The notes: a model not told the origin generated them from the letters alone. A stretch of DNA of 64,000 bases from Alphaproteobacteria bacterium (GCA_017451625.1 JAFTNY010000033.1:13800-77799); one strand, 5' to 3'; numbered from the stretch's first letter, positions 50,945 through 51,440 are shown. Numbers and translations are program-made.

Positions 50945-51301
50945 TTACATTTCTGCAACATTTCCGATGCAATAGCATTCAGCACTTGTCTTATAGTTTG
51001 TTTGTAAGTAACATTCGTATGTTGATGTGGATGTGTATGAACATGTCCCATATGATTGCGTGTACGTGCCGTCATCATCTGTTCCTGACGTAGTGCTGCG
51101 TGTGCATAGTTTTGACGTTGAATCCCATGTCCATCCGCTGGGACAATTATAAATGGTACCTGTTGTCCCCCCAGGACAGCAACATCCACTATATATTTGT
51201 GCGGTGCATATTGACTTTGACCAGCAGGGTGTTGTCAATATTGCCTGTGCTGTTTGGCATGTTCCCAATACTACACCTAAACCGACGTTTAGATTCGGCA
51301 A
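50945..51301 (-). CDS. Small secreted Cys-rich protein (cysteine-rich secreted family)
   Basis: TTG start inside the conserved module; 'LPNLNVGLGVVLGTCQTAQA' signal-like; 'CCCPGGTTGTIYNCPSGWTW'. Confidence 0.5.
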   Translation of the reverse strand: MPNLNVGLGVVLGTCQTAQAILTTPCWSKSICTAQIYSGCCCPGGTTGTIYNCPSGWTWDSTSKLCTRSTTSGTDDDGTYTQSYGTCSYTSTSTYECYLQTNYKTSAECYCIGNVAEM

Positions 51302-51440
51302 AAGAGAGGGGATAAAAAATGCAGAAATCTGGGATTAAATTTTTAAACATTATGCCGATAACAATCGTCCCATTGGATTCGGCAGTTGTTTTTCTTCTGT
51401 ACGCCATATATTTTACCGCGTACAGCGATTTTTTGCAAGT
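51289..51440 (-). repeat. Copy (C) of conserved ~150-bp 5' module upstream of Cys-rich secreted-protein gene
   Basis: Reverse complement is ~95% identical to 30380..30535, including the 'ctgtacgc-N14-gcgtacag' inverted repeat. Confidence 0.6.

Follow-up and report, generated by a model that had tools for sequence, protein, structure and literature searches.

The window, a stretch of 64,000 nucleotides from an Alphaproteobacteria bacterium, contains a small gene on its reverse strand that we call gene C. The product is rich in cysteine (10%), is predicted to be secreted and is called identically in MAG GCA_017935465.1. At the start of the gene, and upstream of it, lies a compact module, copy C. 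The features are as follows.

51410..51438, reverse strand: promoter found by a consensus scan, with -35 hexamer TTGCAA (51438-51433), 17-nt spacer and -10 hexamer TAAAAT (51415-51410)
51351..51385, reverse strand: site L, with box 1 arm CTGCCGAATCCAATGG, central GA (51369-51368) and right arm CGATTGTTATCGGCA
51285..51368, no strand assigned: putative invertible segment, 84 bp between the central dinucleotides, in state 1 (presumed OFF)
51304..51360, forward strand: start cassette, with SD GAGAGGGGA (51304-51312), ATG (51319-51321) and 14 codons MQKSGIKFLNIMPI
51279..51301, reverse strand: site R, with box 2 arm TTGCCGAATCTAAACG, central TC (51285-51284), then GGTTTAG
50945..51301, reverse strand: gene C, 118 aa from TTG, or 129 aa with the segment flipped
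50578..50919, reverse strand: second gene of the copy C unit, cysteine-rich, with its own SD, ATG and signal peptide
50546-50577: bidirectional terminator after the second gene

The promoter is outside the invertible segment. The cassette is on the strand opposite to the gene, where it opens an ORF (51319..51474, forward strand), and the TTG at 51301 is the annotated OFF-state start codon of gene C. Site L is an imperfect palindrome (inverted repeat I2, 13 nt); its transcript is predicted to fold into a hairpin of -11.4 kcal/mol, followed by an A/U-rich tail. A second inverted repeat, I1, joins 51284-51303 with 51350-51369. The product of the second gene has a Pfam Ephrin_rec_like match and the C-terminal CYY motif of the cysteine-rich family described below.

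The neighbours of this unit are of different kinds. On the forward strand, 48356-50548 encodes a 730-aa protein, rich in Ala, Thr and Arg, then in Cys, with no Pfam match. This gene converges on the copy C operon and the terminator at 50546-50577 is common to both. Directly upstream of module C are type IV secretion and conjugation genes (52438-56402, reverse strand). They include a TrbI/VirB10-like gene at 52438-54894, and neighbouring ORFs include a CagX-family match. Two small ORFs (51464-51832 and 51845-52189) lie between these genes and module C.

The preliminary description presented module C as the near-identical twin of a sequence on the opposite strand, 20 kb away, and this is borne out. 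An ungapped alignment of 30381 onwards (forward strand) with 51439 onwards (reverse strand) gives 155 identities in 170 positions. Within the 161-nt module (30381-30541 and 51279-51439) there are 151 identities, and the flanks are unrelated. Near-identity had been put at about 95 nt from the module start; it does begin there, but extends over about 129 nt (126/129). Divergence had been placed just 5' of the second box. A variable C-rich tract (14/20 identities) is indeed found at this position. However, identity resumes at the second GCCGAATC box and continues for about 12 nt beyond, covering the first 7-8 codons of the ORF called from TTG or GTG at box 2, and stops at about 51279/30541. The 20-nt windows directly outside the module share only 3-9 positions. 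Overall, identity between copies A and C is 94-98%, their edges are sharp, and they are collinear without gaps from the -35 hexamer on. A 43-nt stretch covering the promoter is exactly the same in both and absent from the rest of the window (chance expectation 0).

The GCCGAATC box occurs 10 times in the window, where 2.35 occurrences are expected. Pairs spaced by exactly 84 nt are found at three places, and this exposed a diverged third copy, B, at about 19042-19200 on the reverse strand. A covariance model run over the whole window returned copies A, B and C only. The features of A and B are as follows.

30382..30541, forward strand: copy A, with -35 hexamer at 30382-87, -10 hexamer at 30405-10 and box 1 at 30435-44
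30446-57, forward strand: copy A site L core, central GA at 30451-52
30499-30501 and 30509-15, reverse strand: copy A cassette, ATG and SD respectively, from in silico flipping
30519-28 and 30530-41, forward strand: copy A box 2 and site R core, with a perfect 7-bp inverted core
30519-31112, forward strand: copy A gene, the ORF from box 2
19042..19200, reverse strand: copy B, with -35 hexamer at 19200-19195, -10 hexamer at 19177-19172 and box 1 at 19148-39
19137-26 and 19053-42, reverse strand: copy B site L core and site R core, with box 2 (CTG) at 19064-55, from the alignment
19082-84, forward strand: copy B cassette ATG, from in silico flipping
17937 to 19064 (or 19148), reverse strand: copy B gene

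Copy B carries a 27-nt version of repeat I2, spanning the whole site. Immediately upstream of its promoter are a tRNA-Pro gene and terminator (19269-19345, reverse strand). A tRNA-like sequence is likewise upstream of the module at locus L074, and housekeeping-gene terminators often directly precede modules (that of infB, in the case of copy A). The cysteine-rich coding sequence behind module A (30542-31112) is replaced by an unrelated cysteine-rich allele at two related loci, L068 (1307-1940) and L071 (1054-1728), where module A and the inositol monophosphatase gene that flank the swapped allele remain 98-99% identical. The same two loci have an extra ~860 bp between infB and module A, with a 190-aa ORF lacking a Pfam match.

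Overall, there are about 25 occurrences of the module, in MAGs of Candidatus Enterousia / Rs-D84. Enterousia belongs to order Rs-D84, has genomes below 1 Mb, lacks the TCA cycle and respiration, and is thought to depend on other organisms, for example for nutrients (PMC12306168). Scanning GTDB species representatives with the pattern TCTGCATTTTTT-N(10-16)-GCCGAATC gave 31 loci. Thirteen cluster in four MAGs; the others are chance matches. OZ007020.1, the 958-kb circular genome of an uncultured alphaproteobacterium, has 7 copies, two Candidatus Enterousia MAGs have 3 and 1, and a 'Proteobacteria bacterium' MAG has 2. A metagenome scan added 7 module-bearing loci, 6 of them distinct, mostly from gut samples, and a covariance-model search added 3 diverged or degenerate copies. 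The window itself matches contigs of MAGs GCA_017935465.1, GCA_045596045.1 and GCA_017474005.1, and is 100% identical to scaffold_631 of ENA ERZ28654584.

In most copies, a frame opening at the second box encodes a protein of 118-375 aa, with 4-12% Cys and a hydrophobic N-terminus resembling a signal peptide. Many of these downstream proteins end in the motif C..CP..G.S..GS.S...CY.P......D..G.Y.F...CYY, and their middle parts are hypervariable. The 5' module of the preliminary description does hold up as a promoter-bearing element common to otherwise unrelated genes.

Comparison of the copies reveals a shared architecture. A fixed sigma-70 promoter, with promoter-like hexamers at the equivalent position in related copies and the same sequence in A and C, is followed by two short inverted sites of recombination type. 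The arms of each site are roughly palindromic, of the form (A/T)TGCCGAATCYAAAC, around a central dinucleotide. Site L reads aaTGCCGAAnnnAAACC, the central dinucleotide (AC, GA, TC or TA), CGWTTA and a degenerate copy of the arm. Site R reads TtTGCCGAATCYAAWCG, the reverse-complement dinucleotide, GGTTT and a degenerate arm. The two GCCGAATC boxes, which had looked like a direct repeat, are the better-conserved arms of two palindrome-like sites with mutually inverted centres. In all 21 scorable copies, the central dinucleotides of sites L and R are exact reverse complements. The inverted core that brackets the segment varies in length, being 7 bp and perfect in A and B, matched at 6 of 7 positions in C (site R against inverted site L) and up to 22 bp long at L005. 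In alignment A4, there is pairing between columns 29-35 and columns 109-115, with double changes at three positions (AU 14, GC 5 and UA 3, with none broken; CG 15 and AU 6; AU 10 and UA 9). The covarying dinucleotide recalls the sites of serine invertases; a 7-bp identical core would also suit a tyrosine recombinase.

The distance between site centres is 84 bp (range 83-85), or about 8 helical turns, and the segment is rich in A/T tracts. Phasing and intrinsic bending may help so tight a loop to form.

Box 1 starts with ATG in 15 of 22 copies and with CTG in A and C (30435-30437 and 51385-51383); the equivalent position in copy B, columns 13-15 of alignment A4, is 19148-19146. Inversion would place this ATG in the reading frame of the gene in 13 of 22 copies; for most others, the box 1 frame ends one codon ahead of the cassette ATG. 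The box 1 ATG could be an upstream start in use, or a mere reflection of the palindromic arm (ATGCC...GGCAT).

The reverse strand of the segment carries an SD, an ATG 6-8 nt beyond it and 14 lysine-rich codons. When the 70 enclosed nt are reverse-complemented, a purine-rich SD (GTGGGGGA, GGGAGA, GGAGAG, GGAGGAAG and similar) takes the place of the C-rich tract, ATGCAGA that of the invariant TCTGCAT, and runs of T become lysine codons. When flipped in silico, SD-ATG-MQKSGIF(T/S)KIK... is in frame with the long cysteine-rich coding sequence downstream in 21 of 21 copies. The frame is kept even in copies with a 69- or 71-nt segment, because all indels fall between the SD and the ATG. Conversely, the 42 nt that are coding only after inversion have a constant length. 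The TCTGCATTTTTT core is missing from one divergent copy (L055, 5105-5235), which behaves likewise, giving an in-frame SD, a GTG and an n-region containing KK. Third-position excess in the codon-position entropy of the cassette is weak (0.83, against 0.57 and 0.75).

The first 14 residues of the flipped form contain 2-5 lysines or arginines, compared with 0-1 in the first 8 residues of the unflipped form. Judged by predicted sequence, the flipped form is a canonical Sec signal peptide and the annotated, unflipped form is not. The TTG or GTG start, used as the boundary of the module in the preliminary description, is probably an annotation of the OFF state only. That description also suggested that only a regulatory part had been duplicated. 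This does not hold: the 84-bp segment between the sites occurs either way round at orthologous loci, and the reverse strand of the segment encodes the SD, ATG and signal-peptide start of the downstream gene.

The evidence for both orientations is as follows. Two loci of OZ007020.1, L015 and L020, are in the opposite arrangement, state 2, with promoter, box 1, inverted segment and coding sequence in that order. These had first looked 'promoterless' and trailed by 9-codon ORFs. At L020, the cassette ATG opens an uninterrupted ORF of 352 aa. Comparison of its product with protein collections identified an orthologue (P0012, 97% identical) at L074 (ENA ERZ16268073). The flanks of L074 and L020 are 98.5-98.9% identical, yet L074 is in state 1 and its segment has the opposite orientation. 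Similarly, L005 (OZ007020.1, state 1) and L077 (ENA ERZ16268158, state 2) agree at 99.2% and 98.0% in their two flanks, and share a 99-nt element with 100% identity but in inverted orientation. In all, precise inversion is found at three independent loci between strains 98-99% identical. Hence, as expected of an inverton, both orientations exist at one locus within the family (L005/L077, L020/L074 and L015 against the L074 promoter flank).

State 2 was not seen for copies A, B and C, which were in state 1 in the window and in all contigs examined (the 7 places listed of 8 contigs for B, the 10 listed of 19 for A, and 2 more contigs across C). When ON-type N-termini were used as a profile against 5.8 billion proteins, the matches were short ORFs only. 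Among these, P0010 derives from a real state 2 locus (L077) and the others examined are antisense ORFs of state 1 modules. We conclude that state 2 is rare in public assemblies.

Three further observations concern these loci. First, L077 (2545-2560, against 4206-4293 of L005) lacks 88 nt immediately after site R. The absent sequence is the hydrophobic core of the signal peptide, the gene is out of frame and the product, P0010, is 74 aa long. An aberrant recombination product, a real knockout allele and an assembly collapse are each possible. Second, L015 (5994-6530) and L028 (5617-6152) are OZ007020.1 paralogues whose 5' ends are 98% identical over 537 nt; the module preceding one is in state 2, that preceding the other in state 1. 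Third, a frameshift or long-read indel breaks the L015 gene about 68 codons in.

Taken together, we consider it probable, at roughly 0.75, that copy C belongs to a family of miniature DNA inversion switches placed before genes for small, cysteine-rich secreted proteins in Candidatus Enterousia/Rs-D84. In state 1, OFF and as in the window, the start cassette would be directed away from the gene. The transcript would meet the site L hairpin and a U/A-rich run, and the coding sequence would have an SD-less TTG or GTG start and an uncharged N-terminus. A putative site-specific recombinase would exchange strands within the 2-7 bp common core, flipping the 84-bp segment. In state 2, ON, SD-ATG-MQKSGI(K/F)... 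would form one reading frame with the signal-peptide hydrophobic core and the mature protein. Sites in different modules would also recombine, producing large inversions that re-pair promoters with genes. The recombinase, the rate at which it acts and the influence of orientation on expression are inferred. The ON and OFF labels are suggested by the SD, ATG and n-region in one orientation and by the hairpin and U-run in the other. Note that most state 1 copies keep an open frame from TTG, GTG or ATG and so state 1 may not be fully off. Note also that 84 bp is a very tight loop for synapsis of two sites, which counts against a switch.

Recombination between modules has left traces at the window's own locus. 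In contigs L064 and L070, from the window's species, sequence equivalent to 35845->30380 is joined to 51276->54680. The junction combines the gene side of module A with the TrbI side (upstream flank) of module C. The window arrangement is kept in L065, L066, L067 and L069. The L064/L070 arrangement is a 21-kb inversion whose endpoints fall inside modules A and C. The preliminary description's view that module copies recombine is upheld by these contigs. Such recombination would account for the near-identity and sharp edges of A and C, and their homogenisation in this way is plausible. A second case is L074, where the L020 gene stands behind the promoter flank that is found at L015 in OZ007020.1. 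Manual derivation gave no path from L074 to the OZ007020.1 arrangement by a single inversion; a minimum of two or three events is required. In the manner of a shufflon, more than two sites have thus recombined into alternative arrangements, via site-specific or homologous recombination (the A/C inversion, and L015/L020 against L074). Contigs L079-L081 end at or beside module C, with L079 ending inside the site R core.

In line with the gene conversion or duplication of the preliminary description, the modules could belong to an ordinary paralogous family, with the promoter, leader and signal-peptide start conserved by selection and homogenised by gene conversion or RecA-dependent recombination. 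On that view, inverted copies are rare rearrangements that became fixed, and no programmed switch exists. We consider this unlikely as an account of the whole. It fits the 94-98% identity of A and C and their sharp edges, homologous recombination across 160-bp inverted repeats could yield the 21-kb inversion, and coding alleles downstream of module A do vary among strains. Likewise in keeping with this explanation, no recombinase was found in the window or the related loci covered. The difficulty lies within the modules. Repeats of 7-22 bp are too short for efficient RecA recombination. Repeats inside a module are of just this length, yet inversion was precise at three independent loci. Furthermore, flipping completes a canonical start region in every copy, an extraordinary coincidence if accidental.

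The search for a recombinase gene covered the window and about 400 kb of related loci, and none was detected. Briefly, 30 window proteins were compared with Pfam individually. The remaining window ORFs, and 77 ORFs from the related loci, were compared with Pfam and PHROGs, among the top 25 families listed. Finally, tblastn was run with approximate XerD and Hin probe sequences.

Alternatively, the module could act as a cis-regulatory RNA leader. Box 1 would begin an upstream ORF, a terminator-like hairpin would follow, and the gene start would be hidden by a long-range helix, in which codons 4-7 pair with the segment following box 1, until translation of the upstream ORF opened that helix. We regard this as quite unlikely, despite several features that such a leader would predict. 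The two 12-nt stretches that follow box 1 and box 2 are complementary to each other, and RNAalifold by itself arrives at the long-range helix, three of whose pairs show compensatory changes, with almost none broken. The covariation score exceeds that of 500/500 shuffles and of every slid register. The helix is in the minimum-free-energy fold of many copies (probability above 0.9), the hairpin (-6 to -18 kcal/mol) is present in every copy, usually with a U-run next to it, and box 1 frequently offers an ATG, as noted above. However, inverted DNA repeats would show equal complementarity. The excess of G-U pairs over A-C mismatches that RNA pairing should leave is not apparent, although this count is uninformative for RNA against DNA constraint. 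Rfam gave no match to the module at gathering or permissive thresholds: at gathering score the window contains only two tRNAs, and the best module E-values are 7-9. An RNA leader also leaves four things unexplained: the segment in both orientations at one locus; the in-frame SD, ATG and n-region on the reverse strand in 21/21 copies; the avoidance by indels of the 42 nt coding only after inversion; and the exchange of partner, between lineages, by the 3' arm of the hairpin. The RNA attenuator model was demoted because the flipped frame, its SD and natural inverted copies were found. Within the inversion switch, the hairpin may serve as the OFF-state terminator. Two related ideas were dropped. 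One was a longer helix in which box 1 would pair with sequence beyond site R; this is 63% paired, compared with 26-43% in slid registers, yet is no better than shuffles. Translational bypass between the identical boxes was also rejected, as stop codons between the boxes lack a conserved position and the direct repeat is covered by the explanation at DNA level.

It is highly improbable that the inverted states are assembly artefacts: state 2 is rare, L077 also lacks 88 nt beside site R and contigs L079-L081 break at or near the module, but state 2 occurs at two loci of a long-read circular MAG and one locus of an independent short-read assembly, the breakpoints fall exactly in the repeats each time, the inverted segment of L077 is 100% identical, and a single read or a k141 k-mer path is longer than the element, so that the assembled orientation should be directly supported by reads rather than chosen by the assembler.

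Of known switches, cwpV of Clostridioides difficile is the closest. Like the module, it has a fixed promoter upstream of the repeats, a short invertible leader before a surface-protein gene, a proposed terminator in the OFF form and a gut bacterium as host. The cwpV element is 195 bp, carries neither the promoter nor any part of an ORF, and is inverted by RecV; an intrinsic leader terminator was proposed for the OFF orientation (Emerson et al. 2009, PMC2784873). The module differs from the cwpV type because its segment is 84 bp and carries an SD, start codon and 14 codons. It also occurs in many copies per genome, which recombine mutually.

Partial-intergenic and intragenic invertons form a recognised class, enriched in gut bacteria and in surface functions (PMC9881135; bioRxiv 10.1101/2023.03.11.532203). 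As in the module, the inversion described there overlaps the 5' end of a coding sequence and alters the N-terminus or expression of the protein. The published partial-intergenic examples are described as longer, shufflon-like domain swaps (PMC9881135; bioRxiv 10.1101/2023.03.11.532203). The screen of Milman et al. 2023 demanded inverted repeats no shorter than 22 bp, linked to opposite-strand gene pairs within 15 kb (PMC9881135). On those settings it would miss the module, because module repeats are 7-22 bp. The available portions of the inverton surveys report no case from an uncultured Rs-D84 genome (Milman et al. 2023; Chanin et al.).

The sites of the Hin/Gin/Cin/Pin systems resemble those of the module in having inverted half-sites around a central dinucleotide, which in those systems must match between partners; phase variation of surface structures is the outcome there. 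The hix and gix half-sites of serine invertases end in AAACC or GGTTT-like sequences. The AAACC/GGTTT-like inner half-sites of the module, with their covarying dinucleotide, recall these. Hin acts on 26-bp sites, inverting ~1 kb, and depends on an enhancer bound by Fis (PMC3798978). By comparison, the module segment of 84 bp is far below known invertasome substrates, no enhancer was seen and there is no invertase match nearby, which separates it from the Hin/Gin group. The fimS element of E. coli, inverted by FimB/FimE, is likewise short, has 9-bp inverted repeats and turns a surface structure ON or OFF. However, fimS is 314 bp and carries the promoter, whereas in the module the promoter is fixed and the translation start moves.

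Inversion systems of Mycoplasma variable surface lipoproteins include M. pulmonis vsa, M. agalactiae vpma/Xer1 and M. bovis vsp; the R64 shufflon uses Rci. In all of these, one promoter or expression site is moved among silent genes. The likeness here is of a reduced, host-associated genome, with a variable surface or secreted family sharing a common 5' region and signal peptide. As in these systems and in the R64 shufflon, inversions between sites at gene 5' ends re-pair expression sequences with genes. In contrast, every module gene has its own promoter and mini-cassette, to which large inversions between modules are added, and the products are cysteine-rich secreted proteins rather than lipoproteins. 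Most likely, the module is a partial-intergenic inverton that also behaves like a shufflon, and so a new variant of phase variation by site-specific inversion.

A fixed promoter with a moving 84-bp cassette of SD, ATG and charged signal-peptide start has no counterpart that we found in the switch literature. Similarly without counterpart, in the literature compared, are the private cassette and promoter for each gene, the many copies, the inversions between modules and the lineage. If correct, our interpretation implies programmed variation of secreted or surface cysteine-rich proteins in uncultured gut Alphaproteobacteria with reduced genomes. At least 7 switches in a 0.96-Mb genome would indicate strong pressure from host, phages or partner cells. 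The short spacing between sites would provide a natural test case for recombinase synapsis across tight DNA loops. A more ambitious proposal, which we offer tentatively and think somewhat doubtful, is that Enterousia/Rs-D84 has genome-wide, Mycoplasma-like phase variation. Its invertons would be among the smallest in nature, the recombinase would be of a new type or capable of acting on a tight loop, and the sites would also shuffle promoters.

Similar switches may be overlooked elsewhere, as their repeats can be shorter than 22 bp (the cut-off of one screen), their OFF form is annotated from TTG and they generate spurious antisense ORFs. The last are readily seen here. The forward-strand ORF at 51319-51474 of the window, and P0001-P0009 and P0011, are antisense ORFs (MQKSGI...) opened by OFF-state cassettes. 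They stand in public collections as predicted 'proteins' of 37-83 aa and are probably annotation artefacts. Finally, two degenerate modules, L055 7740-7871 (forward strand) and L016 5882-6046 (reverse strand), each precede an ORF of 9-22 codons. The central motif of the former is a perfect terminator-like hairpin (AAAATCCCAGAAATTTCTGGGATTTTTT). Both are probably decayed module copies.
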